64,000 nucleotides of DNA from Candidatus Omnitrophota bacterium (GCA_025453395.1 JALOQK010000007.1:6524-70523), one strand, 5' to 3'; shown: positions 3,001-64,000, counted from the first letter of the stretch. Program-made: numbers and translations. The notes: a model not told the origin generated them from the letters alone.

Positions 3001-6000
3001 ATCGCTGCGCTGATTCCGCCAAGGGCAATGCCCAAAGGAATTGCAGAACCAATCGTTAATAGACCCAGAGTTTTTAACCATTTCGTATCATGACCTTTTA
3101 TTCTCGGATAAAACTGATTTAATAAGACTAAACCCATACCAACTGCAACTGCAATCGCTGCGCTGATTCCGCCAAGGGCAATGCCTAAAGGAATTGCCGC
3201 AGCAATAGTAAGCAAGGCCAAAGTTTTTAAGCGGATAGAATGCAACAGGTATAAGCCTATCACTGCCAGAGTAGCAATAACCAAACTAGCCATGATATAA
3301 ATAACCGCGGCTTGGGAAAAACCAAGCAAGCTAAGGCCAATCAAAACCACAGCTGGAGAAATAGCCAAAAGTCCCTGAACAAGCCCAATTAAGAACTTTT
3401 GTATCATGAGCGGTAAATTCTCCATCAACTCTTGTGTCTTTAAAGGTAATCTTATTATAAAATTTTTTCTTGTAACTTTTGCCAATCCTCTGCTTAAAGT
3501 TTCTGCTATTGGCTTACCTTTTGCCAATTTTCCGCTTATAGCTTCTGCTATTTTAAATGTACCATTTTTGCGCGGGTTGCACATAAACGGACCAAAGGCC
3601 CAAGCCAGAGGCATTGCCAGTAAAAAGACATTGATTGCCCAGCCTAAGGGATCAAACGGCGCGCGCAAAGCCACAACCAAAAGCAACAGATTAGCTAAGA
3701 ATATGCCAAAGGAAAACTCCTTGGCCATATTCCAGAAAGTAGTCCTGACTAAAACCGGAGACCGGTCAGTTAAGCTGTATTTATCCCTGGAGTGTAAACC
3801 CTCGGTGATTAATTTATAGGCGTGCGGCGGAATAAAAGCCACAAAGAATAAGAATAAAATCGGGAAGTAAAGCATAAATAATCCCATGCCCTTAACCGCG
3901 CCATACCTCTCGGTAAAATATTCAATAGTCTGCAGGTTAATGGACTGGGCAAAAACCAACCCGGCATAGGTGAATAACCACGGCCAGAATAACCCGGCAT
4001 ACACGGCAAAAGGAAGCAGAGTGGCGCAGACAATCATCGCAATATTAGTGGCTAAGACCAGCGGCTTTCTTAAATAGAACCCAGAGGTATACAGCGCCTC
4101 TACCTTGGCTGTATAATGCACATAATCACTGCTAATAAACTCCCAGAAGATAGGGCTTAAGCTAGTCTTAGACACCGGGCCGGCAAATCTCTGAATAAAG
4201 CCGACTGAATCATAAATTGATTTTTCCTGCGACCCCTTGAAACAGATATATTCAACGTGCTTAGTGCCGTATCCGGCAGTAAGCAATAAATAGCTGGTTA
4301 TAGTGTCTTCAATAATCTGCGATGCTTCAACTCCGCCTACGCTCTCCAAAGCCGCTATATCAATAACCATCTTTCCGAACCCGCCTTCTCGGCCAACCCT
4401 GGCTTTAACTGACCTGATAGGAATATTCCAGGTATTTTCGCCTGTGGCATTACATACAATTTCCGGGCTGTATTCTTCGCCGTATACTCTATAGCTGGCT
4501 GAAAGCAGGCCTAATGTCCGGTCTTCCTGGAACTCACGGAAGACATTGGGCAGATAAATAAAATCTTCTACTTCCTGCCTGTGGCCAACATCCATACATA
4601 CAATGCGCGGGGTCCTGATATAAGAGCGCATCTGACACCAGCCGCCGTATTTCGGGTTAAAAGAGGGATTCCTGCCAGGGAACATGCAAATTACATGCGG
4701 CATATTAGCCCAAGGCCTGCTCGGATCCGGACTATGCCATTTCCCATCAGGATTAAGCCTGGGGTCATTACCTACTTCTGCATCAACAACAAACCCGTAT
4801 TCTCCAGGAATTTGGCGTTTGAATTGGGCTTCAACACTACTCCTCTTGGTGGAAGAGTATTTAAATATAATCTTTACATGCTCCTTGGCCCAGCTCTCTA
4901 ACGCGGCATTATATCTTGTCTCTTCCACCGGATCAGACAAATCTGCGTGGGCAATAATCCCCAAGCGATGGGCTAGCATCTTATATGACCACACAGCAGC
5001 TAAACGCTCGCTTTCAGTAGTCTTCCAAGCGCCTTCTGTTCTCCAACACAGCCAATCTTCCATCATATTAGTTAACTGAACATCAGTTAAGCTATTTCCT
5101 TTTAAGACAGTAAATACATCTCCTGCTCTCTTCGGAGAAAGTAAAATATCCCTATTGTCATCTGTAATTACCACTCCGCAAGCAGGGGCCAAGACATCAC
5201 TAATAAACAATCTCCACTCATAGCTGTGCTTAGAGAAAATCATTTCAAACTGGGTCATGTCAATGTCAATCACTCGTTCATCATCGGGATTTTCCCATTT
5301 TCCTTTAGCATCCACTCCCGGCATCCAATCCCTGCCTTCTTTGGTATCCCTTAAGTACACCCTATAAGGCTCGGCAGCCATGGAACCCTGGATAGTCAAT
5401 GTTTCTACTTGTGCCTGATTATCAATGCTGATTTTCTCCATATAGTAGCGATTTACCAGATCCACGATTCTTTCCCGGACAAAAGCAAGCTCGGGGACAT
5501 TGGCTTCATGGCCATCTAAAATCCCTAACAGACTGGCTTTTTCTTCTTTAGAGATCAACGGGCCGCGCCCAGCTTTGATATCAGTGAAACTGCCGTCTAT
5601 GCCGCCCCTTAAATCCTCCACAAACTTCATCCAGATATAGCGGTAGCTCGGATCTGCCTCAATTATCTCGCGGATCTTCTCAAGCGCTGTTTTACAATCA
5701 GTGACACTAACCAGGTTTTCCTTGCGCACGATATTTCTGCGTAATGCCGCGTAATTTGCCTGAGTAATGGAAAAGAAGGAAAGAATTATATTCAATAATA
5801 AAGGTAGGTAGAAAGCAATCTTCCCCCACCAAGGAACCCCGACAGGAGACCATAAACCAAATAAAACAAAAACCAACAAGCCATTATAAATAAACCACTC
5901 GGCAAAAGTTATAACCCAAAACCTTGAAGAAACACCCGAGGCAGGTTTGGCTTCCGGCGCAGAGCGCTCGCCAAACATGCCCAGCAAAATAGCGCACAGG

Positions 6001-9000
6001 ATGCCGCTTAAAAAGACCATAATAATCCCAGTGATAACTGGTAAGCTTGTAAATGCGCCTAACATAATTGCCAAGACAAAAGGCACAGCTAAAATTATTG
6101 TTATTTTAGGAACGGACAATCCGAATATTCTACCGATGATTTGAGGAAGCCTAAGAGCAAAATATTGCAATCCGCTTTGCGGTAAATTAAAGCTCGGGAT
6201 GCCGTCCCTTGCTCTTCGCTGCCGCAGAAAATCCCTAATTCCGTTTTCTCCATGGATTAAATCCATTATTATGGCATCGGTTAATTCACTCAGATGCTCC
6301 GCATAGTAAGCTAAATTATGCCCGCTGGATTCAAATTGTGTAAATAAATCTATATTTTCTTCTGCGCAATATCTATAAAGTGTATCCATATCATGTTCAG
6401 TAAAAACATACCCATCTGGAGCAGAAATTCTCTGGCCCAAGCTCCTTTGCTGCATTGCTGATATAGTCGTTGCTTCCTGATGGAAAAGTACCCTGAACCA
6501 TAAATTACGATGGTCAGAGATTAACTTCAATATTTTCCTTTCCTGTTCAGAATACTGCGCTTGGGCCTCTTCCCTCTTAGCCTTAGCTGCTGCTTTTTTA
6601 GTCTTAGCCTCCGCCTTTTTTGCAGCAGCTTCTGAATCCCTACCCAATTTTCTTAGTTTTTCAGCATCTTCTTCTAACTTCTTAGCTTCTCCTTCTAATT
6701 TATTAGCCGGTTCTTCTATTTTTTTGGCTTGTGTATCATGCTTTAATAAATCCTCAATATTCACATCCGGATATTCCAGTTGTATGCGCAGCAATAAATC
6801 ATTAATTAACCCCGGCCGATAATTCATTACCCCGATATGATTAATCACAAACATATACCAAGGATCATTGCGCAGGGCTGGCCTTACAGTCACGCTCGGA
6901 CGCTGCTTGGTATCTCTGCCGGATATTAATCCCCGCATAACAAGGCCGAGAGCGCGCAATACCCCGTATAGTGCGCCTATACCAACAACCAAACCCAGGA
7001 AACCCCAGACTAATACTTTCGCTATAGGCCAAATTGCGCCATCGCGCTTAAGCGCCGTAAATACATTGTTATGTCCCAGGTTATATTTCAGCCTTTCCCA
7101 GAAAGTCCCTGTTTTTAACTCATCGGTAAAAACATTATGCCTCTGCATGATCAATCTGCCTCTGTCATCGTGCAGGCGGCCGTCCACAGGCCCGTAAATA
7201 TAATCTTTGGCGCGGGATAAATCCAGCCATTCATGATGCTTGCGGCTTAAGAACCTCTCGTTAAACCAAAGATATCCTGGCTTAATATCAATGCCTTTTA
7301 CATCTGCGGGTATAGGCGCGGGAGTGAAAACCGAGTAAGAATCTTCTTTGTCTAATTTAATGCCGTCGGCATCCTCCACCACCTTTGTTTCTGAAGGAAA
7401 TCCGTTGCTGCCGTAATAAAGCTTTATCTTGGCCGGGCCGACTTTCGGCGTCCTTGCCTTATACATATTCCAATAAGAATCTCCATTCATCCTATAGGCT
7501 GCCTGAATCAAACTCTCGTCTCTTAATCCATCATCAGTGCCAACCCCCCTCTGCCAATTAATATCATATACATTCACCGGCCTGCCGTCTCCATTGAGCT
7601 CCTGGTGAGAATAGGTAGAGGTGAATAAAAAGTTTCCGCGATTAAGATCCATCACAAAACTGCTAGGTAAAATACCGAACGGCGCCTTGGTTAAATTAGT
7701 ACCCTGCTTCCACCATTCAGAAAGAATAAAATCCGTATCAGTCATCTGGCACAGATCGCTACCCAAGGGATCATTGGGCAAAAGATAAATGCTGTTTGTG
7801 GAATCATCCTGCTCGGTATAAACTACTTTGTAAGCACCGCTTGCGTCCTGCTTGAGCGCGGGCACCTTCAGGGTCTCAGTTACCTTTACTATCAATGTGT
7901 CCTTAGTTATATTCAACAAGGCCAGGTCGCTCCAAAGGTCCCTTCCTGTCTGCATAAAGTAAACAGCGGCTCTTTGCTCGGTAAATAAATCCCCGGCCTT
8001 AACCCTGACTATCTTGCCGTCAGCTCCGCGGCTATCATAGGTTCTAGTAATAGAATTATCTGAGTTTAAGCGTAAACTTCTAACTTGTTCTTTCCCCTGC
8101 CAAACAATACCCACAATCTTAAATGAACCCTGATCATGAACAATAACTTTTAGCGGATCGTCGGCAAGGCGATAGTCCGTCCAAACAGCTCCCCAAACAG
8201 TATTAACCCGGCTCTGATCAAGCCTGGTATTACCGTTTATGCCCGATACTGCTAAGCCGCTTCTTATCTGCGCGTCTATGCTGTTAAAAGGTATGCCGAA
8301 TATTTCGCTAAGCGTTCCTGGCTGCTGATATCTAGTTTCAAAAACCCAATTCTTGACATCGTAAGTATAAGTATTCCCGCTGCGTGCTGCGCGGTAAGTA
8401 ATCCTGTCCGGAGTATCATCGCCAGCTTTGGGACTGGAAGAAATTATCTCCACTAAATACCCGCTTCCTATTAGCTTTGAGATATTCGCTCTCTCTTCAC
8501 CATCATTATCCATTGCCCTGGCAATTACAAAGATCCCTTCAGGAGTAATCTCATTGGCAATTAACCACTTTTCACCTTTAATCTTATCATCCGTCCTAAC
8601 CACCCAACCGGCTACATTGCTTTTATTAAGGGCAGTATCCTTATCAATAGCATTACCCTGACGATCAAACAGGTTGAAATTACTATCGTAGTAAATAACC
8701 GGCCTCGTGACCAATGTATCGGACCCGATAATCACTTTACCAAGAACATTAACTGCGTTCGGAAGAGTTACGGGGCCCCTAAAGAAAAGCATTACTTCGT
8801 TACCATCGTTGTTAACACCAAAAACCCTGACTGTTTTATTAGTTTGAGTATCTATCTGGCGCATTAGCGCGGCTTTTACAGCGCCATTTTCTCTCTCTGC
8901 TGGATTACCTGCGATAACCACCTGCTCTGTCTTGAATAATAATCTACCAGTCGCCCCGCCTAAGACCGGATAATGATAGGTTTCGGTTCCGGTTTCGTTC

Positions 9001-50554: not shown

Positions 50555-51461
50555 AGTCCACCAATATTGTGGTTATTGACATATTCTCAGAGGCATTGCT
50601 GGCATTAGAAAGCATAATATTACATTTGTCCCCGGACGGATTAGAAAAATTCAATTCGGTCAAGGCTAACTCTATCTTCATATCTGCCGCTGGCGTCAGC
50701 TTCTTGCATGAAGGACAATCCCCGGACACGCCTCCGGCAACCTTTCTTTCAATAGGCTTCATATCCACCAGGTTCCATCCTTTAGCGGACATATTATCCT
50801 TATAAAAATTGGCCACAGGCTCTATATCGCTTGAGACAGAATAAGTCGCTCTCATTGTTTTATCCTGCTCTGACAAAGTCAACAAGGATGCCCCCGGATA
50901 AACCGGAGTAACGTCTTTCTTTGGATGCGCCAGCAACTTGGGGAAAACATTTTCCGCCTCTTTAGAAGAACTTGCATTATCATTTGTCTTGCTGTATGAA
51001 ACCGTAAATCTTGTCTTATTGTCCCGGGAAAATTCAGAAGGCATAAAACTTATGATCACCTGCTCCGGGTCTTTAGAAAAATACATGGTGCGCCCCATGG
51101 AATCTTCCATTTCCGGGGTCACCCTTACTGCCGGCAGTTTCTTTAGATTCTGCATTAATTCCTGCTCTGTCCAGCCTGATGCCGATAATTTTTTGCGGTA
51201 GAAATCCTTTATTGCCGCGGCGCCCTGGCTGGAAGCATAATAAATAAAATCTAATTTTCTCCCGGCGATCATCCGCTCTTCCCTCTTGACTTCTTCCGTT
51301 CCATAAGGAACGGACAATTCCTGTTTGGCAGATCCAAGTTCCCACCAGGAAGCGGAAGCAGAATTGGCCCCCGCGGTCAAAATAAAAATCATCAGCGCCA
51401 CCGGAAACATTTTTTTACGGCAATAAAACATTTTTCTCTTCCTCCTGTTTTCTAAAAACAA
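50535..51461 (-). CDS. Exported hypothetical protein with two related domains (xFYxxxxSAxGW motif twice). The true start is probably one of the internal Met codons (MFPVALMIFILTAGANSASA).
   Basis: ORF track. The N-terminus is signal-like. Its 5' end overlaps the end of the upstream TadG-like gene. Confidence 0.6.
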   Translation of the reverse strand: MFLENRRKRKMFYCRKKMFPVALMIFILTAGANSASASWWELGSAKQELSVPYGTEEVKREERMIAGRKLDFIYYASSQGAAAIKDFYRKKLSASGWTEQELMQNLKKLPAVRVTPEMEDSMGRTMYFSKDPEQVIISFMPSEFSRDNKTRFTVSYSKTNDNASSSKEAENVFPKLLAHPKKDVTPVYPGASLLTLSEQDKTMRATYSVSSDIEPVANFYKDNMSAKGWNLVDMKPIERKVAGGVSGDCPSCKKLTPAADMKIELALTELNFSNPSGDKCNIMLSNASNASENMSITTILVDYAENKK

Positions 51462-53281
51462 TCGGCATTGGCGGTACGCAGTTCTTTTATTTGCGTCTCT
51501 ATGTCCGCGGCATTTTGCCTGAAACCATCGGCATTATCCCTTAACAGATCCGCGGAAGCAAAAAGTGCGTTGGCCTGCTCTATCAACCCGGCAACCAACA
51601 ATGCGTTTGCCTCAACCTCCGTCTCACTTGCCTGACTTTCCATAGTTGCGGCGTTTTGATATAAATCCACTACTTGCCCTTCCAAAGCCGAAACATCTTC
51701 AACAACACTTTTGCAACGGTTATAGGTTACCCCCGGGTCGTCGGTCTCCACAATCGAGGCATCATGGCGCAATACCGGTTCATGGATCTGGCCAAGCCCG
51801 GTGAAATTAACCACACTGTAACTTGTAATATCCGGATATTCTGTTTGCCACAAACCAAGATCCCCGCCTTGATGATGTTGAGTAGTCCTTAAAGTAACTA
51901 AGCGGTCATGCACAATATCATCTATCCAGCAGATGATAAAAGGAAATGACGACTCAAGGTTTCCGCTTCGCACTGGGTACGCCGGCAACAATCCTGCCAA
52001 GGCTATGGCAAGAGGTGCGTACATTGAGGCCATCGTAGCTATGGCTGCTGCATTAGATTCCAAACCAAGTGCATTCATTTTTAAACCGGCGAAATTGGTT
52101 TCTATGCCTGCAAAAAGAGCAGCTTCCGCAGCCGCACATTGCGTAGCCCAGGTATGGCAACAAGGACAACCGGCATGGCAATGGCTGTGGCAACATGATA
52201 AACAAGGCCCCACGCAGGCGCAGGCAAGGACCAGAGCATCTTCTGCGATAGTATAACTTACTCCCGCTGCCACCCAACTAGCCTCAGCGGAAGCATATGA
52301 TGCCCCTGCCGCAGTTAAGGAAGCTGTAGCTGCCTTTGCAGAAGAAATAATATTCCACAAAAGCGGCAATTCCACAACACTGGGAAGTGCCGCGACTTTT
52401 AAATCAAAGGTATCCACCTTATCAAGCTTAACGCTTGTTTTGACAAAATGCAATCTTTCCTGGCCGTCTACCCAGCGATATTCATATTCATCGCCATGCT
52501 TTATATTATCAAGAAAATCGCTAAAGCTATCCCGGTAATTATTTCTTGCATCATCGCCAACAACAGAACTTGCGGGCTTGCCGGCTTTAAGCTTTGAACC
52601 GATTTCGCTGTTCATAAAAGCGAATTTATGCGCCAGTTCAATCGCGCTTTCCCTGCCTTCTTTTGCCATCTTTCTTATTGAAGCGTAAAAATAGATCTGC
52701 GCTGCGGCAAAGGCAGCAACAGAAATAAAGATCGCTATAAGCGTAGTAGTAAAAACCTCCATTGCCTCAAGCGCCAAGCCAATAGCAATTATCGCCTTGC
52801 CTATGCTAAATCCCGCCGCAGCCAGTTTCCCGATTGCCGCTGAAGTAAAGCCCAATGCCGCGCAAGGTGACGGACATGCAGTTGATTCCGCGGAACCGGC
52901 AGCAATTACCGCGGCAGTGGCTGCGGCCTCCGCGGCGGTTGCCGCAGCCTGACCGGCAATCGCCTGCGTATGCGCCTGGATCAAGTTATAAGTAGCAATG
53001 GCAAAAGAAACAGCCACCAGCGCATAAAACTCCCAATACCCTGTTTCCATGGCTGAATTGGCCTGGGCTACGCCGTTAAAGACATTTGCCATCACCGACC
53101 CGCCGGCTAAACTTCCGGCATCAGCGGCATTGCTGGTATCGGTCTTAAAAAAAGCCACCTTGCTTAAATTCATAGTCACCAGCGACATGGTGATAAGCAC
53201 AACCAGAACCACAAGAAATATGGGGATAAGCTGGCCCTTTTTGCCGAGACGGAATTTATAGAAATGAAATCTACGGAACAT
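51452..53281 (-). CDS. tadG: TadG-like pilus assembly protein (609 aa) with an N-terminal Tad_N-type TM segment and an unusual Cys/His-rich cluster
   Basis: The N-terminus is GQLIPIFLVVLVVLITMSLVTMNLSKV ... NAADAGSLAGG (a TadE/G-like motif). The internal cluster is CACVGPCLSCCHSHCHAGCPCCHTWATQC (about 52140-52230). Confidence 0.6.
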   Translation of the reverse strand: MFRRFHFYKFRLGKKGQLIPIFLVVLVVLITMSLVTMNLSKVAFFKTDTSNAADAGSLAGGSVMANVFNGVAQANSAMETGYWEFYALVAVSFAIATYNLIQAHTQAIAGQAAATAAEAAATAAVIAAGSAESTACPSPCAALGFTSAAIGKLAAAGFSIGKAIIAIGLALEAMEVFTTTLIAIFISVAAFAAAQIYFYASIRKMAKEGRESAIELAHKFAFMNSEIGSKLKAGKPASSVVGDDARNNYRDSFSDFLDNIKHGDEYEYRWVDGQERLHFVKTSVKLDKVDTFDLKVAALPSVVELPLLWNIISSAKAATASLTAAGASYASAEASWVAAGVSYTIAEDALVLACACVGPCLSCCHSHCHAGCPCCHTWATQCAAAEAALFAGIETNFAGLKMNALGLESNAAAIATMASMYAPLAIALAGLLPAYPVRSGNLESSFPFIICWIDDIVHDRLVTLRTTQHHQGGDLGLWQTEYPDITSYSVVNFTGLGQIHEPVLRHDASIVETDDPGVTYNRCKSVVEDVSALEGQVVDLYQNAATMESQASETEVEANALLVAGLIEQANALFASADLLRDNADGFRQNAADIETQIKELRTANADCF

Positions 53282-53288
53282 ATTATTC

Positions 53289-53573
53289 CTATTTTTGCCC
53301 TGTGCCGCCGGTTAAGACTTCTTCTTCTGTCAGATTATCCGGGGCATAGACCGGCCAGCGTAGCGTGTATTTGTCAGACGAAGTCCCGGCGGGAACCCGC
53401 GAGGCATTATAATTGGCCTGCCGCTTGACGATCTGGGCGTTGCCCCAGAACCAGATCCTGATGATCCCGCCGATAAAAAGAAAAATAATAATGAAAACCA
53501 CCGCGGTCTCAAGCGTTGACTGCCCGGATCGGCCTTTCTTAATCGGATTTATTCTGCGAACGGAGTTACCCAT
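53289..53573 (-). CDS. tadE: TadE-like minor pseudopilin (94 aa)
   Basis: The N-terminus is GQSTLETAVVFIIIFLFIGGIIRIWFW. It lies within the tad gene string. Confidence 0.55.
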   Translation of the reverse strand: MGNSVRRINPIKKGRSGQSTLETAVVFIIIFLFIGGIIRIWFWGNAQIVKRQANYNASRVPAGTSSDKYTLRWPVYAPDNLTEEEVLTGGTGQK

Positions 53574-54298
53574 TGCTGCGTCCTCTCCACTGTGCCATCC
53601 TTAGAGGCCTTACTGCTGTATTTATACTGACCATCAACCGGATCACGGTAAATATACTGCTCTACATCCACCAGATTTCCTCCTGAAATAATCTTATCAT
53701 TATCATCATTGCTATCGTCGTCGTTTTCCCTGATAGTGTAGGGAATAGTTGTCCTGATGCGCTCCTTAAGGCTAGAGCCCTTAATATTAGAAATACCGCC
53801 ATAATCTTCCTGCTTATTAACATTCTCTTCAAACTCAAGATTAGATTCTGTTGTCATATCTTCAACCCTTAAAGACCTGTTTTCTTCATCATCTTCTGAA
53901 ATATAATCACGGAATTTCCTTGTGTACTCGTCTTCATTGATCCGATAGGTCATGGTATTTTCCGGCTGTTCTCCCACCTTAGGCACTGCCCAAAACACAT
54001 TCGCAGAGCCGCTTACAGTCTGGGGGCTTCCTTTTTTGAAGCTTGAAAAATCCGCGTTGCGCCGATTCTGTAATAAGGTATACTGGACAGACGCGCCTGC
54101 TCCTTCGGATTCTGACCCGATATAAGTGCACCCCTTTTGCAACGCTCTCCGGAAAGCCTCCATTTTGGTGTATTGCTGGTCGTTTAATCTTTGCATGTAA
54201 GAAATAAGCATCCCGAATAAAAAAAGGATCAGCCCGCCGAAAATGGCAAGCTCTATGACTGCCTGGCCTTTTTCTCTGAAAACTGTCCCCGCGCGCAT
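53549..54298 (-). CDS. tadF: TadE/TadF-like pseudopilin (249 aa)
   Basis: The N-terminus is GQAVIELAIFGGLILFLFGMLISYMQ. It lies within the tad gene string. Confidence 0.55.
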   Translation of the reverse strand: MRAGTVFREKGQAVIELAIFGGLILFLFGMLISYMQRLNDQQYTKMEAFRRALQKGCTYIGSESEGAGASVQYTLLQNRRNADFSSFKKGSPQTVSGSANVFWAVPKVGEQPENTMTYRINEDEYTRKFRDYISEDDEENRSLRVEDMTTESNLEFEENVNKQEDYGGISNIKGSSLKERIRTTIPYTIRENDDDSNDDNDKIISGGNLVDVEQYIYRDPVDGQYKYSSKASKDGTVERTQQWVTPFAE

Positions 54299-54315: not shown

Positions 54316-54750
54316 TTACTCCTTTGAATCTACTAAACTGGCCTCTAAATCTTCATTCTTAAATTCACTGTCAGACGCTCTTACAATATCATCAGGCAGA
54401 CCCTTCTTGGAAGAAATAAAATCGTATTTATCTTCGCCGCCCGCATATTCCTCTGAACGGCTGGAACCGGTAATAATGGTTGTGCCCTGAAGGTTGGAAC
54501 TTGTGCCGCCTCCCCGCAAAAGCCTAGTTGTGCTGACCATATCAGAAGTTGTGCTGGATTTACTTTGCGCGTACACCCCGGGGCTGGGCTCCCCTTCCTG
54601 AACAGGACTGATAAAAGCGTCTGTCATATCCTTAACTTTGCCCTGGAGGCCGCGTTTAATGTATGTATTCATACCGATAAAAGCCGCGGCCACCACGCTT
54701 AAGATAATCGCGTACTCCACAAAAGACAATCCTTTATTCTGTCTTATCAT
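54316..54750 (-). CDS. Flp-family pilin paralogue with extended C-terminal domain (144 aa)
   Basis: KGLSFVEYAIILSVVAAAFIGMNTYIKRGLQGKV. Confidence 0.65.
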   Translation of the reverse strand: MIRQNKGLSFVEYAIILSVVAAAFIGMNTYIKRGLQGKVKDMTDAFISPVQEGEPSPGVYAQSKSSTTSDMVSTTRLLRGGGTSSNLQGTTIITGSSRSEEYAGGEDKYDFISSKKGLPDDIVRASDSEFKNEDLEASLVDSKE

Positions 54751-54753
54751 CTT

Positions 54754-55104
54754 TTACCTCTGGGGTTCTTGGCTAAAATCCCCGACACTCTCATCCTTGC
54801 TTATATTCTGCTCTATCCGGGTACTGCTTTCCGAGATGCTCTTATTTGCTTCAAGCACAGAGCCTGAAGAACTGTCCGCGGGATTAGTGTAGCTTGTGGA
54901 AGTTTCCGCGATCTTACGCGTTATTCTGCTGTTGGCGACTGTCGCCCCGGGAGAATACATACCGCCATCGCTTATTTGCCCGGCAGTATTACGTAAAGAC
55001 CCCTGCACGCCTCTTTTAAAATAGACAGTCATGGAAAAAATAGCAATAGCCACAACCCCGATCATCACAACATACTCCATTATGCTCTGGGCCTTGTTCT
55101 TCAT
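54754..55104 (-). CDS. Flp-family pilin paralogue (116 aa)
   Basis: KAQSIMEYVVMIGVVAIAIFSMTVYFKRGVQG. Confidence 0.65.
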   Translation of the reverse strand: MKNKAQSIMEYVVMIGVVAIAIFSMTVYFKRGVQGSLRNTAGQISDGGMYSPGATVANSRITRKIAETSTSYTNPADSSSGSVLEANKSISESSTRIEQNISKDESVGDFSQEPQR

Positions 55105-55107
55105 AAC

Positions 55108-55263
55108 TTACCTCTTGGATTCATCCAGCTCTTCCTGCGCCTGCTTTAGCCGCGCGTTCATTGAGCGCTGGATATATTGATACATCGCTATCAATGCCGC
55201 CGATATAACAATAATAAGCATCGCGTATTCCAGAAAGTTCTGCCCGCGTTTTGAATTAAGCAT
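55108..55263 (-). CDS. flp: Short Flp pilin (51 aa), absent from the ORF track because it is under 60 aa
   Basis: Manual translation gives MLNSKRGQNFLEYAMLIIVISAALIAMYQYIQRSMNARLKQAQEELDESKR*. The ATG is at 55261-55263 and the TAA at 55108-55110. Confidence 0.65.
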   Translation of the reverse strand: MLNSKRGQNFLEYAMLIIVISAALIAMYQYIQRSMNARLKQAQEELDESKR

Positions 55264-55266
55264 AAA

Positions 55267-55545
55267 CTATTCTCCGCTATCTTTTCCTGCGATGTTGCTT
55301 GTTACCGAAGCTGCCACCGTGCCCATAACCCCTTCTTTAGTCAACCCGCCCTCAGGGGCAGCTTCGCCTTGGCTTACATTTCCGGTGTCATCCGGGACAT
55401 TGTTGACTATTGCCCCGGAGGCAGTGTTAAAATAATTTTTAAATGAGCCCTTCATTTTCATAATAAAACCCGCTGATACTATCGCGGCTATTACCACCGC
55501 CATAATTACAAAATACTCCGCTGTTGTCTGGGCTTTTTTATTCAT
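55267..55545 (-). CDS. Flp-family pilin paralogue (92 aa)
   Basis: KAQTTAEYFVIMAVVIAAIVSAGFIM. Confidence 0.7.
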   Translation of the reverse strand: MNKKAQTTAEYFVIMAVVIAAIVSAGFIMKMKGSFKNYFNTASGAIVNNVPDDTGNVSQGEAAPEGGLTKEGVMGTVAASVTSNIAGKDSGE

Positions 55546-56400
55546 TTAGAGCACCTTTTTAGTCACAAAATCCAAGAGTATCGGCCCGCCGATGACAATG
55601 CCGATAACCGGAAGTATGCAGAATATTAAAGGTATCAATATCTTTAACGGCGCCTGCATGGCGATTCTCTCTCCGCGGTTAAACCTCTGCATGCGCGAAT
55701 CTTCAGAAAGTATGGTAAAAGCCTCGGCAACCGGGGTGCCCATTCTCTCGGCCAAAACAAGGGTCTGGACAAAGGAACTAACTTCAGAAATATTAAGCCT
55801 TCTGGACATGTCTTTTAATGCCTGCGAACGCGATTTGCCCCACTTGATTTCCTCCAGCACAAAACCCAATTCTTCAAGCATGGGGTTCATGGTGGTTTTT
55901 TCAAGTATCCATTTTATGGAAGTGGTAAAATCCAGGCCTGCCTCAATACAAAGCCCTAACAGATCTACTGTTTCCGGCAAAATGCGCGCGATAGCATTTT
56001 TGCGCCGCGCGATTATCTGCTTTAAGAAAATATCCGGGATAATATACCCTAATGCCAGACAAACAATAAATGTCGGGGGGTCGAATTTATTAAAACCGAA
56101 ATAAGCCGCTATGCACAAGACAACTATCAACAATATTTTCAGATTAAAAAAGGCCTGAACGCTGAATTTTACCCGCGAGGCGTCAAGCTTAAGCTTGATC
56201 TTGTCATAAATCTTGATCTTCTCCAGCATTTTATGCGTAAAAGGAAAGATATCATTAAGAAAAGAATTAAAATTAAATTTCCCTCCAGTTGCCTCTTCGG
56301 ATAATTTCATGCGCGAGGCGGAAACTTTCTCATCATACCGCGAGGCAAGAAGGATGAAACTGGCGCATCCCACGATAAAAAGAATTATTAATATTTCCAT
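55546..56400 (-). CDS. tadC: TadC-like inner-membrane platform protein (T2SS F-type domain), 284 aa
   Basis: Polytopic membrane protein with T2SSF-like helices. It is adjacent to the TadB-like gene and the pilin genes. Confidence 0.75.
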   Translation of the reverse strand: MEILIILFIVGCASFILLASRYDEKVSASRMKLSEEATGGKFNFNSFLNDIFPFTHKMLEKIKIYDKIKLKLDASRVKFSVQAFFNLKILLIVVLCIAAYFGFNKFDPPTFIVCLALGYIIPDIFLKQIIARRKNAIARILPETVDLLGLCIEAGLDFTTSIKWILEKTTMNPMLEELGFVLEEIKWGKSRSQALKDMSRRLNISEVSSFVQTLVLAERMGTPVAEAFTILSEDSRMQRFNRGERIAMQAPLKILIPLIFCILPVIGIVIGGPILLDFVTKKVL

Positions 56401-56418
56401 ATCTCTCCTATTATCCGC

Positions 56419-57288
56419 CTATACTTTTATTTGGCTGAATTTATGGATCAAAATCATCCCCACTATTTGTAAACCGCCCGCGATAATCAACATAAACCTG
56501 CCCTGCTCGTTTTGCATCATCGCGTCAAAATGATGCGGATTAAATTTCAATACCCACATCACAAAAAGTATCGGAAGAACCGACATGATTATGCCCTGCA
56601 GCCTTCCCTGAAGGGTCAAGGTCTTAATATTCTCTTTTAGTTTACGGTTATCTCTAATGGTAGTCACCAGGCGGCTGAAGACCTTGGTTAAATCTCCTCC
56701 TGTTTCACGCGCCACCAAAATAGAATTAACTACCATGCTTAAATCTTCCATCATCATTCTTTTATCCAGCCTGCGCAAACTCTCCTCAAGGGTGATACCC
56801 ATCTTATTTTCCCTTACCACTAAGCCGATTTCCTGGCTCATCGGAGCAGGCATTTCTTCAATCAAAACCTCAAGCGACTGCAAAAGGCTCAAGCCGCCTT
56901 TTAAGGAACTTGAAAGTATCATAATCGCGTCTAATATCTGGACATTGAATTTTTTGCGCCGCCTGCCATTACGGATTTTTAATATAAGATTTGGTATGAC
57001 AAGGCCCAAAAACAACCCTGCGATAGCAATAAGCGGCGAGCCTGAAAGTAAAAAGAATATTCCGGCAAATATCGGAGGCAGGATAAAGTAAAAACGCACG
57101 ATGGATTTGGGGCTTTTATCATAATAAAAAAGCTTATCCAGCTCCTGCGCTACGACTTCTTCTTTTTTTTCTTTCCAGATTTTTAGTTTATCTTCAAGGG
57201 AAGGGGCAAACGCCATAGTAAGGATCACAATGGCCGCCGCTGTCAAAAACAAAACACTTATCAAAGCCATGCCGCTAAACATTGTCAA
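56419..57288 (-). CDS. tadB: TadB-like inner-membrane platform protein, 289 aa
   Basis: Membrane protein paralogous to the adjacent TadC-like gene, in the order typical of tad loci. Confidence 0.75.
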   Translation of the reverse strand: MTMFSGMALISVLFLTAAAIVILTMAFAPSLEDKLKIWKEKKEEVVAQELDKLFYYDKSPKSIVRFYFILPPIFAGIFFLLSGSPLIAIAGLFLGLVIPNLILKIRNGRRRKKFNVQILDAIMILSSSLKGGLSLLQSLEVLIEEMPAPMSQEIGLVVRENKMGITLEESLRRLDKRMMMEDLSMVVNSILVARETGGDLTKVFSRLVTTIRDNRKLKENIKTLTLQGRLQGIIMSVLPILFVMWVLKFNPHHFDAMMQNEQGRFMLIIAGGLQIVGMILIHKFSQIKV

Positions 57289-57312
57289 CTCCTGTTATGG
57301 TGTGCTTGCCTT

Positions 57313-57669
57313 TTATTGTGGCCAGTACTCATCACTCTGCTTGGCAACTGTTTCTGTGCCTGTGCGGGTCTGCTTCTGCTTACTGACAGTAGTAGTCTTG
57401 GTCTTCGCGCCAACATCATCCCCGGCCGCAGCGTCTTCGGTTGTGCCAGACACATCCTCGGAAGATTCTGTGTTGCTGATAATTGTATATTCATTGGTAG
57501 TCTGCCCGGGAGAAAATTGTTCTCCGATCTGGTCAGAAGCTTCCCTTATTTTTCCTTGCACGCCGCGCTTAAAATATGTCTGCATGGCGATAAGAGCGGC
57601 TACTACTACGGCAATAATTACCGCGTATTCCAGAGTGCTCTGAGCTTTTTCACTATCACGCATAAACAT
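57313..57669 (-). CDS. Flp-family pilin paralogue with C-terminal extension (118 aa)
   Basis: KAQSTLEYAVIIAVVVAALIAMQTYFKRGVQGKI. Confidence 0.65.
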   Translation of the reverse strand: MFMRDSEKAQSTLEYAVIIAVVVAALIAMQTYFKRGVQGKIREASDQIGEQFSPGQTTNEYTIISNTESSEDVSGTTEDAAAGDDVGAKTKTTTVSKQKQTRTGTETVAKQSDEYWPQ

Positions 57670-57712
57670 TTTATCACCTCCTCAAGCTTTTGACCACCTT
57701 CTATTAACAAAT

Positions 57713-58096
57713 TTAATGACCGCCCAAATACCCCGGGGCAGAAGTATCTTCTTCCTGCCACCCGATAACCTGCTGACGAGAAGCATCGGTTACTTCGCTA
57801 CCCACAACTCTCTCTACCTCTCCCTCTTTCTTCAGTCTCTCTGTTTTAGTAGCATCGGTCTTACTCTGGGCGCTTGAGGAAGCATAATACGGCTCATATT
57901 GTCCGCTTGTAAATTCTAAAGTCTGCCCTCCCACATCCCCAGCTGCACCGGTATGATCCACAACGTCTTTTGTCCTTCCCTGCAAGCCCCTTCTCACATA
58001 AACCTGCATGGCTAATGCCGCGCCTACAACCAAGCCTATTAAGATGGCGTATTCTGCGGTAGACTGTCCGTTCTTTTTTCTTAAACGCATAAACAT
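57713..58096 (-). CDS. Flp-family pilin paralogue with C-terminal extension (127 aa)
   Basis: KNGQSTAEYAILIGLVVGAALAMQVYVRRGLQG. Confidence 0.65.
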   Translation of the reverse strand: MFMRLRKKNGQSTAEYAILIGLVVGAALAMQVYVRRGLQGRTKDVVDHTGAAGDVGGQTLEFTSGQYEPYYASSSAQSKTDATKTERLKKEGEVERVVGSEVTDASRQQVIGWQEEDTSAPGYLGGH

Positions 58097-58643: not shown

Positions 58644-60419
58644 TTAAAGCTTAAACCAGATTCTTTTTTCCTGAAAACTGCATCCGGTTTCGTTAAGCCT
58701 TAAAAAAGCGTATTCCAGATCTTTGCGCCAGGCGCAATTTTCCGGAAAAATAAATTCCGCGGTATAATGTTTATCAAAGGCGGATAGTTTTGTTTTTAGA
58801 TTGTAGAAACGGCTTTTCATCGTCGAGAAATCCACGTCCTGATAGGACGCGGGCAAAAAATGCCACCTGAAATAGGCGTCCAGAAAATATAAATATCTCT
58901 CCAGGTACTCTTTTATTTCGGCGGGTTTTTCCTGCGCGTCCACCCAGGAAAAGAAACGCTGGGCATCAGCGGTATAAGTGAACAATTCCATTTTACGGCT
59001 ATAATCCTGAAAGGTTAATTCCGGAGCCGGCCATCTTTGAAAATAGGCATGGCATAAATCTTCTGTTGACAAGTTTGCAAGCAAAGAATTCTTCAGAATA
59101 AGCAAAGAAATCTTATCCCCTAAAGATGCTTTGACTGCGGCGCCTTTTAACGTAAACCATTGATTCTTATCCGGTTGCAGTATATTTATTTCTATGCTCG
59201 CCACAAAGATCTTCTTTCCTAAAGGCTTAATCTCAAAGGGGCAGAAATCGCTTATGGATTGAACTTTACGGTAATTGACAAATTGCCAAGGCCAAACCGC
59301 GAAGATCAAACCGGTTTTTTTATACTGGTCAAATTTGAAAATATTTATGTCCTCAAAACGCTCCCCCTGAAAAATAAGTGACGACACATAGGCATCATCT
59401 TTTCCTTCGCAGGCGTTGAATAAATCCACAAATTCTTCTGTGGGCCGTTCATATCCGGGCGCGGAAAAAAGAATCCAAATATTCTTTTCATTTAGGGCTT
59501 GGTTAGCGTAAATCCTTGTTTTGCTTAATGTTAGGGAAAAATCATAGGTTATGTAAGGAGTAGACCAAACTGTATAAAAACGCGGGTCAAAATAAAGATA
59601 CTTGCCGCTGGATAACATTATTTTCAGGCTGCGCACTTCTTCCGGGATTGTGCCCATTAAACGGCCTATTTCCGGAAAGACCATTTCCTTAACCCTTTCT
59701 AGCTCATTAAGATACGCGAGAAAATCTTCTTTGCTGAAATTGGCTCCTAATAAAGGCCAAATTTCCGGTTCCAGAGAGGGATTTAACAAGAAATTGTCAA
59801 ATAGGGAAGAATAAAATAAAGCTTCTAAGCGCTTCAACGATTGCTCGTTGTAATAAGAAGTTTTATTGAAAATTTGATTGTTCAAACGAGGCAAACCTTT
59901 AAACAAGGAATCTACTGCTTTTAAAAGAATCACCCCGGTTGTAATTGCTTCTAAGAACTTATCTTCCTGTGGTGCAATGGCTTGCGGTATAGAAACCGGA
60001 ATAAACCTTGGCTCTGGCACTGGCTCCGGAACAGGTTCGGGCTTTGGCTCTGGTTTAGGTTCAAAGATAGGTTCTACTTTGGACGGCTCTTCTGCTTTTG
60101 TTTCTTGTGGCTTTTGGCTTGTGGCTTGTGACTCACTAGTCGGATTTAATTCCGTGACAGGCTGCGCCAACGCAAGCGCCTTACGGATTCTCTCTTTTAA
60201 CTCTGGAGCAATGCTCTTTTTGGGCCTGCTTCTGCGGCCAACAGGCATACTTAAACCTGACTCTTTAAAAACCGCGTTTATGCTTGATTTTGAAATATCA
60301 ACCTGAAATTGTTCTTGGATCAATAGATTTAAAGCCCGGCAGCTTATTTTGGGGTTTTCTTTCTTTTTTAGCAGTATAAGCTGTTTTATTTCATCTGTAA
60401 CTTTGTAAGCAATCCCCAT
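58644..60419 (-). CDS. HTH-domain protein (591 aa): N-terminal helix-turn-helix, a GRRSRPKK basic patch, an (EPKP)n/(PEPV)n Pro-rich linker, and a C-terminal domain of about 400 aa of unknown function. Candidate locus regulator.
   Basis: The N-terminus KISCRALNLLIQEQFQVDISKSSINAVFKESGL is HTH-like. Its own promoter is covered by the TTGGACATT array. Confidence 0.55.
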   Translation of the reverse strand: MGIAYKVTDEIKQLILLKKKENPKISCRALNLLIQEQFQVDISKSSINAVFKESGLSMPVGRRSRPKKSIAPELKERIRKALALAQPVTELNPTSESQATSQKPQETKAEEPSKVEPIFEPKPEPKPEPVPEPVPEPRFIPVSIPQAIAPQEDKFLEAITTGVILLKAVDSLFKGLPRLNNQIFNKTSYYNEQSLKRLEALFYSSLFDNFLLNPSLEPEIWPLLGANFSKEDFLAYLNELERVKEMVFPEIGRLMGTIPEEVRSLKIMLSSGKYLYFDPRFYTVWSTPYITYDFSLTLSKTRIYANQALNEKNIWILFSAPGYERPTEEFVDLFNACEGKDDAYVSSLIFQGERFEDINIFKFDQYKKTGLIFAVWPWQFVNYRKVQSISDFCPFEIKPLGKKIFVASIEINILQPDKNQWFTLKGAAVKASLGDKISLLILKNSLLANLSTEDLCHAYFQRWPAPELTFQDYSRKMELFTYTADAQRFFSWVDAQEKPAEIKEYLERYLYFLDAYFRWHFLPASYQDVDFSTMKSRFYNLKTKLSAFDKHYTAEFIFPENCAWRKDLEYAFLRLNETGCSFQEKRIWFKL

Positions 60420-60522: not shown

Positions 60523-60864
60523 TTAGCTAATAAGAATGGTATCGCCTTCTTTGGATTCAGAAGAAACAAGACTGCCTGCGGGAAATTCAATAACATAGGC
60601 TGCTTGCAAATACACCCCGCTTAAACGCCAGGGCTTTAGGTTGGCAATGATCTTTATTATCCGGTTCTCTTTATTCACGAATATCAAATCCAAAGAAAAT
60701 TTCATAAAGAAGGTGTGCACAGAATTACAAGGCTGTAAAATAAGCGCTTGGCCGTAAGACAGAGATTCTTTCCCTAAAAGGCCTTTCATACGGCTAAATA
60801 AAGAATCTGCCACTGCCGCATTCTGGGCAAGGCAGACACCAGAAGTTAAATTGGTTATTCGCAT
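60523..60864 (-). CDS. DUF192 (COG1430-like) small protein, 113 aa
   Basis: LILQPCNSVHTFFMKFSLDLIFVNKENRIIKI matches the DUF192 signature block. Confidence 0.7.
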   Translation of the reverse strand: MRITNLTSGVCLAQNAAVADSLFSRMKGLLGKESLSYGQALILQPCNSVHTFFMKFSLDLIFVNKENRIIKIIANLKPWRLSGVYLQAAYVIEFPAGSLVSSESKEGDTILIS

Positions 60865-60869
60865 TGGGA

Positions 60870-63023
60870 TTATTTAGAAAAAGTGTTCTCTGGAAGAGGA
60901 ATACCTTTAATCTTAATTTCTTCCATAAAAGTAGGCAGCTCTCCGGTAGGCTTAAAATCTCCTAAAACCTTGCCTTGAGCATCTATGCCGGTTTGCTTGA
61001 AGGTAAATATGTCTTTCATGGCAATATGCATATCGTCTTTCATGCCGGTTATTTCAGTTACCTGCAGGACCTTGCGGCTGCCGTCGGAAAGCCGGGCAGT
61101 ATGCACAATGATGTTTACTGCCGAGGCGATCATCTCGCGAATGGCCCTTATAGGCAGTTCAATCCCGGACATTAAGATCATGGAATCAAAACGCGACAAA
61201 ACATCCCGGGTAGAATTGGCATGCACTGTGGTCATGGAGCCGTCGTGCCCGGTGTTCATTGCCTGAAGCATGTCCAAAGTTTCTACCCCGCGGCATTCCC
61301 CGACGATAATGCGGTCCGGGCGCATTCTTAAAGTATTGCGGAATAAATCGCGTATAGTTACAGCGCCCCTTCCCTCAATGTTTGCCGCACGAGATTCAAG
61401 ACGAACCCAGTGCTCCTGGCTTAATTTAAGCTCTGCGGCATCCTCAATAGTAACAATGCGCTCTTGATCGGGGATGAAAGCTGATAAAATATTAAGCACC
61501 GTGGTCTTGCCGCTTCCGGTACCTCCGGAAACAATGATATTCTTGCGGCATAAAACGCTTGCCTTAATAAAATCTGCCATCCCCTGGCTGAGCGAACCCA
61601 TGCCGATTAGCTCTTCAATCTTAAACCTTTCTTTGCGGAATTTTCTTATGGTAAGCGTAGGCCCGGTCAAGGAAAGAGGAGGAATAATCGCGTTGACACG
61701 CGAGCCATCCGGAAGCCGCGCGTCCACCATAGGGACTGACTCATCAATTCTTCTTCCGATGGGAGCGATGATTCTCTCAATAATTGTTTTAAGCTGGTCA
61801 TTGGAAATAAATTTCTTGCTGGTCATCTCTATTTTTCCGAAACGCTCAACATAGATTTCATCTTTATTGTTTACCATAATATCCGTAATGCTGGGGTCGG
61901 CCAAAAGGTCTTCCAAGGGGCCTAATCCCAACGCCTCGTCAAGCATCTCCTTGACTAATTTCTTGCGTATTTCCGACGATGAAATAAGGCTGCCCGCCTC
62001 TTCGGCAAGAAAATTTGTCACCATCATTTCGGCCTTTATTTTTAACTCTTGCGTTTTCTTACTGTCGGCAAAGGTGCGGGAATCCATGCGCTTTAAGTTA
62101 AGCTCTTCAATAAGCCGGGCGTGGATCCTGCGCTTTAAGATAAGGATCTCATCATCGCTGCTATAAACTTCCGGCTCCTGCAGTGGCTCGGTCAAGCCTT
62201 GCTGCAGCCAGAAATCCCCTCCCTTAGAAACAAGGATCTCTTTAATCTTTAATTCATCTATTCTGCGCGCTGGCAAATATAATTTCTCATTTACAGCTAA
62301 ATCCTGGGCTAAGGCTTTAATGGCCATGGCAATCTTGGTCTTGGGACTGTCTATCACAAGCGGCACCCCGCGGTTTATCGCCTGCCCGCAGATTTTACCT
62401 TCAGACGGGATTTTAGCGATGATCTCTGCCGGCAGGTTTACCCGCACCTCCTGCCAGCTGATGCTTGCCAGAGATTCCGCGCGGTTTAAAACTATTCTTG
62501 TCATGGCTAGAGGAAAATGTAAAAATTGCAATGTGTCAAGAGCCCATTTGGTTTGGTATATGGAAAGGATATCCGGGGTCACTACAAGCAAAATAAGGTT
62601 GGATTGATTAAGGGTAGCTATAAAAACATCGCTGAATTGCTTTCCGGCGTCAACAACAATATAATCGTAAGACTTATCCAGGCTTGCCAATATATTCTTG
62701 ATCTGCAGGGGATCAACATGCGGAGCTGACTGCGGACGGGTGACCGCGGGGATAAAATCAAGATTCAACAAAGAATTATGAAAAATATAATCTTCTTTAT
62801 TTGCCGCGCCAGGGGTCCTTTTTAATTGGCCTATCCAGTCAGCCATGGTCTTGGTAGGATGCATATCCAGCATCCGCGCCATGTCGCCAACTGCTTGCAT
62901 ATCCAGATCAATAAGACAGACCTTCTTGGCCTGGTCATTAGCCAAAGAAACAGCCAGATTAGAAGCAAGAATAGTCTTTCCTACTCCGCCTTTTATGCTA
63001 AAATTAACAATGATTTTTGCCAT
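60870..63023 (-). CDS. cpaF: Fusion of a TadZ/CpaE-like ParA/MinD-type ATPase domain (N-terminal) with a CpaF/TadA secretion ATPase (C-terminal), 717 aa
   Basis: The N-terminus has IKGGVGKT (deviant Walker A). The C-terminal part has VSGGTGSGKTT (Walker A), VGECRG and TGHDGSMTTVHANS blocks, typical of CpaF/T2SSE ATPases. Confidence 0.8.
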   Translation of the reverse strand: MAKIIVNFSIKGGVGKTILASNLAVSLANDQAKKVCLIDLDMQAVGDMARMLDMHPTKTMADWIGQLKRTPGAANKEDYIFHNSLLNLDFIPAVTRPQSAPHVDPLQIKNILASLDKSYDYIVVDAGKQFSDVFIATLNQSNLILLVVTPDILSIYQTKWALDTLQFLHFPLAMTRIVLNRAESLASISWQEVRVNLPAEIIAKIPSEGKICGQAINRGVPLVIDSPKTKIAMAIKALAQDLAVNEKLYLPARRIDELKIKEILVSKGGDFWLQQGLTEPLQEPEVYSSDDEILILKRRIHARLIEELNLKRMDSRTFADSKKTQELKIKAEMMVTNFLAEEAGSLISSSEIRKKLVKEMLDEALGLGPLEDLLADPSITDIMVNNKDEIYVERFGKIEMTSKKFISNDQLKTIIERIIAPIGRRIDESVPMVDARLPDGSRVNAIIPPLSLTGPTLTIRKFRKERFKIEELIGMGSLSQGMADFIKASVLCRKNIIVSGGTGSGKTTVLNILSAFIPDQERIVTIEDAAELKLSQEHWVRLESRAANIEGRGAVTIRDLFRNTLRMRPDRIIVGECRGVETLDMLQAMNTGHDGSMTTVHANSTRDVLSRFDSMILMSGIELPIRAIREMIASAVNIIVHTARLSDGSRKVLQVTEITGMKDDMHIAMKDIFTFKQTGIDAQGKVLGDFKPTGELPTFMEEIKIKGIPLPENTFSK

Positions 63024-63027
63024 GATT

Positions 63028-64000
63028 TTATCTTAAACGAAACTCGATAGGAATATCTACCCACGCCTCTTGCTTATCCATTGCAACAGGAAAGCTCGGA
63101 TAATTAGAAATTCCCCTTGCGGCGATAAGCGCCTGTTCGTCAAGAATATCGTACCCGGAAGAAACTTTAATAATGCTGTCCACGAGGGAACCGTTGGCGG
63201 CCAGATGAAGGCTGATTCTGACTATTCCTTCAATCCCGGCCTCTTTTGCTGCGGAAGGATAAGACAAAATATCTACTATTTTCTTCTGTAAAAGTATGCT
63301 GTATTGCCTTAATGCTTCTTGGGAAGATTCTGCTGAGTCTATCTTGGGGGCTGCCGGAGCGGCCAGCGCTTCTTTTGCTGCCTGCGCGTCTGGTTCGCGA
63401 GATACAATTGTAGGCGTAAGAGTAATATACAATTCAACATTGCCTCTTTCGCCGCTTCCGCCCCCGGTAAGATGAGATTTTTTACGAAATAGCATTCCTA
63501 TAATCGGAATATCACCTAACCCGGGAGTCTTGGTAATGTCTTCAGATTCTTTCTGTTTTATCAATCCTCCGATAGACATTATCTGCCCGCTGTTTATAAA
63601 AAGCTCAGTAGAGGCATTGCGCTTAGAAAATGGGTAGGCTTGCGCGGTGCGATTGGTAGTTAAACCGATATACTCCACTGAACCGGGCTCACTTACTTCT
63701 ACGTTAACCCCCAGCTTAATCTTTTCACCACCCATAACTACAGGCTTCATCTTTAGCTTAATGCCGTATTCCTTATATTCTACATCTGTGCCTTCGGCGC
63801 CGCTACTACCGCTTACAGTAGTAGTAAAAATAGGTTTCTCTCCGCCCACTAACAATTCTGCTTCTTTGCCGCTCTGACATGCCAGGCGCGGACGGGAAAG
63901 AATCTTGGCTTTTCCTTCTTGGACTAAGGCGTTTAAAGTCCAGGCAAAAGCCGTGCGATTCAGATTGGAAACACTAAAAAGATTTGACCACTTAGCTCCG
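63028..64000 (-). CDS. rcpA: RcpA/CpaC-type secretin, 3' part (the N-terminus lies beyond the window end), with an appended C-terminal TonB_C-like domain
   Basis: The secretin block is GLGDIPIIGMLFRKKS...NVELYITLTPTIVS. The frame stays open to position 64000. The C-terminal 90 aa YPSAAKEAGIEGIVRISLHLAANGSLVDSIIKVSSGYDILDEQALIAARGISNYPSFP match the TonB C-terminal signature. Confidence 0.75.
   Translation of the reverse strand, partial: GAKWSNLFSVSNLNRTAFAWTLNALVQEGKAKILSRPRLACQSGKEAELLVGGEKPIFTTTVSGSSGAEGTDVEYKEYGIKLKMKPVVMGGEKIKLGVNVEVSEPGSVEYIGLTTNRTAQAYPFSKRNASTELFINSGQIMSIGGLIKQKESEDITKTPGLGDIPIIGMLFRKKSHLTGGGSGERGNVELYITLTPTIVSREPDAQAAKEALAAPAAPKIDSAESSQEALRQYSILLQKKIVDILSYPSAAKEAGIEGIVRISLHLAANGSLVDSIIKVSSGYDILDEQALIAARGISNYPSFPVAMDKQEAWVDIPIEFRLR

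Follow-up and report, generated by a model that had tools for sequence, protein, structure and literature searches.

The window, a stretch of 64,000 nucleotides from a Candidatus Omnitrophota bacterium (GCA_025453395.1, JALOQK010000007.1:6524-70523), contained on its minus strand a gene joining an ATPase domain of the TadZ/CpaE type to a CpaF/TadA secretion ATPase. Its open reading frame (ORF) ran uninterrupted from the ATG at 63023 to the stop at 60870, and the single 717-aa polypeptide proposed in a preliminary description of this DNA was thereby recovered. An identical protein was present in NCBI (P0001, named TadA), originating from a Candidatus Omnitrophica metagenome-assembled genome (MAG). 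The gene and its parts were delimited as follows, AF2 standing for AlphaFold2 and pLDDT for its predicted local distance difference test score.

60870..63023, minus strand: whole fused gene, 717 aa plus stop, with TadZ-type ATPase domain, linker and CpaF/TadA (ORF and two-domain Pfam result)
62274..63023, minus strand: residues 1-250, MinD/ParA-fold ATPase domain, putatively of CpaE/TadZ type, with no receiver ahead of it (Pfam, AF2, Foldseek)
62973..62993, minus strand: deviant Walker A KGGVGKT, residues 11-17, with signature Lys11 and P-loop Lys16 (sequence)
62157..62273, minus strand: residues 251-289, flexible Glu-rich linker (AF2 pLDDT 40-53, low identity)
61989..62156, minus strand: residues 290-345, putative helical N-terminal region of CpaF (three AF2 helices, LKxxIHxRL motif)
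61614..61988, minus strand: residues 346-470, CpaF N-terminal domain (NTD; aligned to Caulobacter CpaF 8rkd/9e24)
60873..61613, minus strand: residues 471-717, CpaF catalytic C-terminal domain (CTD; motifs, alignment to CpaF)

The Pfam scan scored the first part as ParA-like (AAA_31, 8e-17; CbiA; ParA; residues 3-245) and the C-terminal half as T2SSE (5.5e-65; residues 365-646), as the preliminary description had anticipated, and NCBIfam placed MinD-type models at 2-248 and TadA/VirB11/FlaI-type models at 330-676. A full-length AF2 monomer model built from a 92-sequence alignment reached a mean pLDDT of 86.6 with a predicted template modeling score (pTM) of 0.54, a combination that indicates rigid bodies predicted with confidence and connected flexibly. 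In this model the pLDDT of residues 1-250 exceeded 90, and the N-terminal domain (N-domain) modeled alone reached 96.4. Between linker and NTD, helices were predicted at 290-308, 315-319 and 321-342, and this region, with its conserved LKxxIHxRL motif, would correspond to the N-terminal helical bundle of CpaF.

Motifs and alignments identified the C-terminal part (residues ~290-717) as a predicted complete, orthologue-grade CpaF/TadA secretion ATPase. It possessed all the motifs attributed to it beforehand (GSGKTT, ECRG, His box), namely SGGTGSGKTT at 499-508 (Walker A G500-T508), the Asp box IEDAAEL (E527/D528), GECRG (E576) and the His box HDGSMTTVH (H593/H601). It matched Caulobacter CpaF with 401 bits (E = 3e-119), compared with 148 bits for FlaI and 124 for VirB11, and the NCBIfam TadA-family model TIGR03819 with 344 bits, just under its cut-off of 373. 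The top Foldseek matches of the full model were Caulobacter CpaF 8rjf/8rkd (TMt 0.79-0.82), with 46% identity to CpaF in the structural alignment. The composition of the locus, with TadB/TadC, Flp-type pilins and an RcpA secretin in the window and RcpC upstream in a related locus (L027), fits the Tad type. By analogy with CpaF, the fused product is expected to be the motor ATPase of the machine and to act as a hexamer.

As an assembled sequence might hide a stop codon between two genes, the continuity of the ORF was examined comparatively. Scanning a single genome for each GTDB species gave 221 encoding stretches, from which 80 loci were retained, essentially all belonging to Omnitrophota; conservation was assessed on an alignment of 79 full-length ORFs and the window protein (80 species). 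All 80 loci matched residues 1-715 continuously, each with a single ORF of 704-732 aa (that of L062 being cut by a contig end), and more than 110 distinct database proteins of 714-730 aa matched at 68-76% identity and 100% coverage, all of them carrying the two sets of Pfam domains. The two halves of the window ORF were separated by neither a stop nor a change of frame. Mean pairwise identity across the 80 species was 0.60 in the N-domain, 0.39 in the linker, 0.65 in the helical region, 0.83 in the NTD and 0.77 in the CTD; the linker nevertheless kept a length of 36-41 residues (median 39; 19% Glu). In the CpaF motifs, all eight residues checked (G505, K506, T507, E527, D528, E576, H593 and H601) showed no variation across the 80 species. 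No conserved internal Met able to yield a separate CpaF was found in the 80-sequence alignment, Met exceeding a frequency of 30% within residues 240-370 at position 334 alone (46%), inside the helical region, and no second MinD-like or CpaF-like ORF occurred within 10 kb on either side in the 80 loci. A sequencing or assembly artefact, in which adjacent tadZ and cpaF genes would have been merged by a missed stop or a junction frameshift, could draw on the fact that the window comes from a MAG and that P0001 is likewise a MAG protein; no specific sign of such an error was found. Against it stand the recurrence of the same ORF in independently assembled species-level genomes, the number of full-length database proteins, the constant linker length without a conserved internal Met, and the divergent fused proteins of other phyla, which were collinear end to end with the window protein at 39-57% identity. 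Given this comparative evidence from the 80 loci and >110 proteins, the presence of a hidden stop or frameshift is very unlikely, and an artefact of this kind has a negligible probability.

The affiliation of the N-domain was addressed by an exhaustive HMMER search with residues 1-260 against 1.84 billion representatives. Fused proteins and their fragments came first, followed by unfused proteins of ~380-420 aa (120-149 bits, 33-39% identity) that matched the N-domain at their residues ~140-385. Ten unfused relatives were scanned, eight with lengths of 388-418 aa and the others with 584 and 670 aa; seven of the ten possessed a Response_reg domain ahead of the ParA-type domain, an architecture of receiver (REC) plus ParA, and one cluster among these relatives was named CpaE by JGI. 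One of them, P0151, was encoded in the operon Flp-TadE-TadG-RcpC-secretin-[REC+ParA]-CpaF-TadB-TadC-DUF192 (L081), between secretin and CpaF, which is the slot occupied by the N-domain in the window operon. In a neighbor-joining tree, the fused N-domains formed a group together with the REC+ParA proteins and separate from two MinDs. With REC+ParA proteins as its closest unfused relatives, including one from a canonical Tad operon, the N-domain (~250 aa) is supported by the sequence comparisons as a ParA/MinD-fold ATPase of the CpaE/TadZ lineage that lacks the receiver-like domain; the corresponding proposal of the preliminary description, made from the KGGVGKT motif, was thus borne out.

The favored interpretation, to which a probability of roughly 0.85 was given, is a natural fusion of adjacent tadZ/cpaE and tadA/cpaF genes within a locus for a Tad-type (type IVc) pilus or secretion system, accompanied by loss of the receiver. 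Directly observed were the fused architecture and how far it is conserved, the place of the gene in the operon, and intact catalytic motifs in the two ATPase modules. Several points weigh against this interpretation. An atypical receiver domain at the N-terminus (ARD/REC) defines classical TadZ and has been proposed to mediate its polar localization, and a C-terminal amphipathic helix for inner-membrane association has been reported for CpaE. The ARD/REC domain was missing here, as the ATPase started at residue 3 without any Response_reg match, and the stretch following the N-domain showed no clear amphipathic helix for membrane targeting: the highest hydrophobic moment, at residues 244-258, was only moderate, the segment contained a proline, and the AF2 helices there were of low confidence. 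The best Foldseek match of the N-domain was the Chlorobium 'ParA family' ATPase 3ea0 (TM 0.87-0.90), with MinD at 0.84, while the TadZ of E. rectale was absent from the top 50. In addition, the neighbor-joining tree was crude and carried no support values, and hexamer formation, dimerization, localization and function are all inferred. Among the upstream genes scanned in L027, none was a separate REC gene.

These observations also feed a competing explanation, according to which the N-domain was independently recruited from generic MinD/ParA/FlhG-type ATPases and 'TadZ fusion' would be a misnomer. The N-domain shares the fold of MinD, FlhG and FleN (TM 0.78-0.87) as well as the deviant Walker A with its signature lysine, KGGVGKT being the canonical MinD form with both lysines; MinD models were its best curated-model matches; MinD, FlhG and FleN came right behind 3ea0 in Foldseek, whereas E. 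rectale TadZ did not; and an ARD is lacking. However, the scores with the curated models were only 83.7 bits (minD_arch, cut-off 201.75) and 78.3 bits (minD_bact, cut-off 212.9), and the genuine operon CpaE of L081 reached 92 and 87 bits on the same models, equally far below the cut-offs, so that such MinD matches are ordinary for CpaE-type domains. MinD structures gave ~55 bits only, the REC+ParA relatives of CpaE architecture having two to three times the MinD bit score, with one of them at exactly the corresponding place in a canonical Tad operon. A complete REC+ParA+T2SSE fusion also exists (P0390, 853 aa). Moreover, unlike MinD, FlhG and FleN, the N-domain lies in a pilus operon, joined to a secretion ATPase, and no clear terminal membrane-targeting helix was detected in it. 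Independent recruitment is therefore regarded as very unlikely. Foldseek was also tried as a structural means of discriminating TadZ from MinD and was rejected, as 3ea0, MinD, FlhG and FleN ranked almost equally.

With the N-domain assigned to the CpaE/TadZ lineage, the state of its nucleotide site was inspected across the 80 species. K11 and D125 were present in 80/80, K16 and D39 in 79/80 and D41 in 78/80, and G12, G13, G15 and G127 were each kept in 78-80/80. The site was less well preserved in other fused lineages (alignment A1), where K16 was replaced by Q in 24/66 and D125 by N in 14/66 sequences, and some of these proteins had an unrecognizable Walker A (e.g. ETREGLGQAL, DNQDRTRKVS). 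A gradient of decay was apparent, from KGGVGKT / DLD / DAG in Omnitrophota to KGGVGQT / DFN / N-x-G in Elusimicrobiota-type proteins. This decay would agree with an N-domain that is a catalytically dead scaffold, tethering CpaF to partners without an ATP-driven cycle of its own, as would the TadZ consensus K/RGGXGXS/T of a Bdellovibrio preprint (bioRxiv 10.64898/2026.07.08.737194), which does not demand the P-loop lysine and which the KGGVGKT of the window satisfies. In the Omnitrophota clade, however, it would be difficult to account for the conservation of the nine residues listed above if nucleotide binding and hydrolysis were not under selection; the retention of every MinD catalytic residue suggests a genuine ATP cycle in this clade, and a dead scaffold is judged improbable, to about the same degree as independent recruitment. 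Because K11, K16, D39, D41 and D125 are conserved, the tethered N-domains probably still form ATP-dependent MinD-like sandwich dimers.

Beyond Omnitrophota, fused proteins were found in Elusimicrobiota, Endomicrobiales, Sericytochromatia, Obscuribacterales and other Cyanobacteria-related MAGs, with a Nocardioides isolate contributing longer fused variants. When P0158 and P0388, the fused proteins that diverged most, served as queries, clades of Elusimicrobiota and of Sericytochromatia/Obscuribacterales were retrieved. The TadZ-CpaF fusion is fixed across Omnitrophota and frequent in Elusimicrobiota and Sericytochromatia. The earlier statement that the two proteins are normally separate holds for the model systems; it does not hold for these lineages, nor for Bdellovibrionota, for which a fusion has been published. 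The architecture was therefore already known, and the literature searched apparently leaves its fixation in Omnitrophota unremarked. Other fusions at CpaF were also encountered (P0002 and P0003, ~1150 aa; P0292 and P0297, ~780-870 aa; P0373), among them proteins with three tandem modules, proteins with two tandem modules and FHA+CpaF proteins; two chains of a three-module CpaF polypeptide would make a pseudo-hexamer.

Among published systems, the window protein corresponds by description to the 'atypical TadZA fusion ATPase' of Bdellovibrio bacteriovorus, which consists of a ParA/MinD-like TadZ without ARD, a flexible linker and a C-terminal TadA in one polypeptide (bioRxiv 10.64898/2026.07.08.737194). 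There, TadZ plus linker binds the polarity hub RomR, TadZA moves dynamically between the poles, and RomR is proposed to take over the localizing role of the ARD in trans (same preprint). A 'CpaF with a CpaE domain' was likewise reported in a cpaBCF cluster of Peredibacter/Bdellovibrionota (PMC13147790). Bdellovibrio/Peredibacter and Omnitrophota share the neighborhood rcpC/cpaB - secretin - fused ATPase, and the hosts of both groups are predatory, or suspected to be predatory or parasitic. Omnitrophota TadB/TadC are also known to group with those of Bdellovibrionales, in a study that does not mention the fusion (Seymour et al. 2023). The likeness to TadZA is nonetheless one of description only, between different phyla: the Omnitrophota protein retains all catalytic residues of MinD, the P-loop lysine among them, a RomR partner is not known for Omnitrophota and was not visible in the window, and tadB and tadC lie in the locus of the fusion whereas tadC is separate in Bdellovibrio. 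Compared with classical TadZ/CpaE and TadA/CpaF (Aggregatibacter, Caulobacter, Pseudomonas; L081), the same two activities occur in the same operon order (secretin, TadZ/CpaE, TadA/CpaF, TadB, TadC), but here in one polypeptide, without receiver/ARD and at a fixed 1:1 ratio.

In Caulobacter, CpaE is the first component in the order of assembly and is needed for secretin localization, and six CpaE dimers have been modeled as a ring around one CpaF hexamer, touching its base in the piliated state. In the fused protein, a flexible tether ~39 residues long would connect each CpaF subunit to its own MinD/ParA ATPase domain of TadZ type. Following the Caulobacter and Bdellovibrio literature, the TadZ module may help to nucleate or position the machine and may contact the base of the CpaF ring. 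The fusion would guarantee co-recruitment of the two activities and fix their stoichiometry at 1:1, giving six TadZ domains per hexamer and hence up to three MinD-like ATP sandwich dimers, compared with the six dimers modeled in Caulobacter. The preliminary description had gone further, considering a polar-localization module to be obligately coupled to the motor; the tethering of an ATPase/dimerization domain agrees with this, while polar localization exceeds the evidence because the N-terminal atypical receiver domain proposed for that role is missing. The way in which TadZ/CpaE communicates with its motor CpaF is a matter of ongoing study in Caulobacter and Bdellovibrio. The covalent link is no oddity of Bdellovibrio, as it also occurs in Omnitrophota, Elusimicrobiota, Sericytochromatia and related non-photosynthetic Cyanobacteria, and a fusion fixed or common in several lineages argues that TadZ and CpaF act as a physical unit. 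Fused proteins with the TadZ ATP site kept, as in Omnitrophota, or lost, as in many other fused lineages, provide a natural series for probing the purpose of the nucleotide cycle.

The fused gene was tightly packed in an operon, its ATG lying 4 nt after the stop of a secretin gene and a DUF192 gene following 5 nt beyond its own stop. The other recognized components of the locus in the window were the following.

63028..64000, minus strand: upstream gene, RcpA/CpaC-type secretin with C-terminal TonB_C (Pfam Secretin, TonB_C)
60523..60864, minus strand: downstream gene, DUF192 protein (Pfam DUF192)
57313..58096, minus strand: two Flp-like pilin genes (pilin-like hydrophobic N-termini by eye; weak DUF4244 match)
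55546..57288, minus strand: TadB and TadC platform proteins of the same locus (Pfam T2SSF twice)

The order secretin, fusion, DUF192 was conserved across the 80 loci, the secretin being the upstream neighbor of the fusion in 77/80 and DUF192 the downstream neighbor in 76/80, and RcpC was found further upstream in L027. The secretin frame continued past 63855 and ran off the window end. A Secretin+TonB_C fusion was also present in L027 (8393-9994), and the TonB_C domain suggests a built-in peptidoglycan or periplasmic anchoring of the secretin. A DUF192 gene also closed the canonical Tad operon of an unrelated genome (L081:12718-13086), and DUF192 may represent an unrecognized Tad accessory protein. 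The Flp-like pilin genes were kept in related loci. No prepilin peptidase gene was recognized among the window ORFs scanned.

The fused gene belongs to a secretion/pilus locus already known from upstream of Omnitrophota giant genes, described as a conserved 'type II secretion-like' gspD/gspE/gspF/rcpC/PPIase locus (PPIase, peptidyl-prolyl isomerase; West-Roberts et al. 2023, bioRxiv 10.1101/2023.11.21.568195). In line with that description, the window encoded a gspD-like secretin, a gspE-like ATPase and gspF-like platform proteins, while rcpC and a Rotamase_2 PPIase were both seen upstream in L027; many small genes (with class III signal peptides according to the preprint) then precede a giant gene with an N-terminal C39 peptidase. 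The passages of the preprint consulted do not note that CpaE and CpaF are fused in the 'gspE' homologue, and the annotation of this 'GspE-like' ATPase of the secretion locus preceding Omnitrophota giant genes is corrected here.

Directly downstream of the Tad-like locus, the window contained a giant ORF (1-46292, minus strand) of more than 15,430 codons from an ATG at 46292, running off the window start. It began with a membrane anchor, followed by a Peptidase_C39 domain (aa 180-258) and, further in, ATP-grasp and DUF7790 domains, and it fits the published Omnitrophota giant genes preceded by the secretion locus. An alternative genetic code for the first 46 kb was considered and rejected, as a stop-to-stop scan gave one giant standard-code ORF. 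A more far-reaching scenario, in which the TadZ module of Omnitrophota would work as a MinD-type ATPase with full activity, the six modules of a hexamer pairing into three ATP-dependent dimers that gate or switch the motor, and in which the machine would export or display the giant C39-peptidase protein in predation or parasitism rather than being merely an adhesive pilus, is unlikely as a whole, if less so than a dead or independently recruited N-domain.

Between the giant ORF and the fused gene, the regions 54316-58096 and 51452-54298 (minus strand) contained five or more small pilin genes of Flp-like type, as well as TadE-like and TadG-like (PF13400) genes and three ORFs lacking a Pfam match (308, 181 and 1052 aa). 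The tadB/tadC genes of the window stood between two groups of pilin genes, as they did in L005, L006, L021 and L069, and after the TadG-like gene in most other related loci. In L027, the region upstream of RcpC (3918-7479) encoded a TPR protein of 754 aa together with a PPIase resembling SurA (Rotamase_2), which agrees with the PPIase described ahead of giant genes; the window ended before the corresponding region. A 591-aa protein encoded at 58644-60419 (minus strand) showed weak transposase-like helix-turn-helix matches in its N-terminal part and also contained a spacer rich in Pro and Glu and a large domain that no Pfam model matched. Its homologue followed DUF192 in most of the 80 loci, with ~400-850 aa and occasionally on the opposite strand, and the protein is a conserved component of the locus rather than an insertion.

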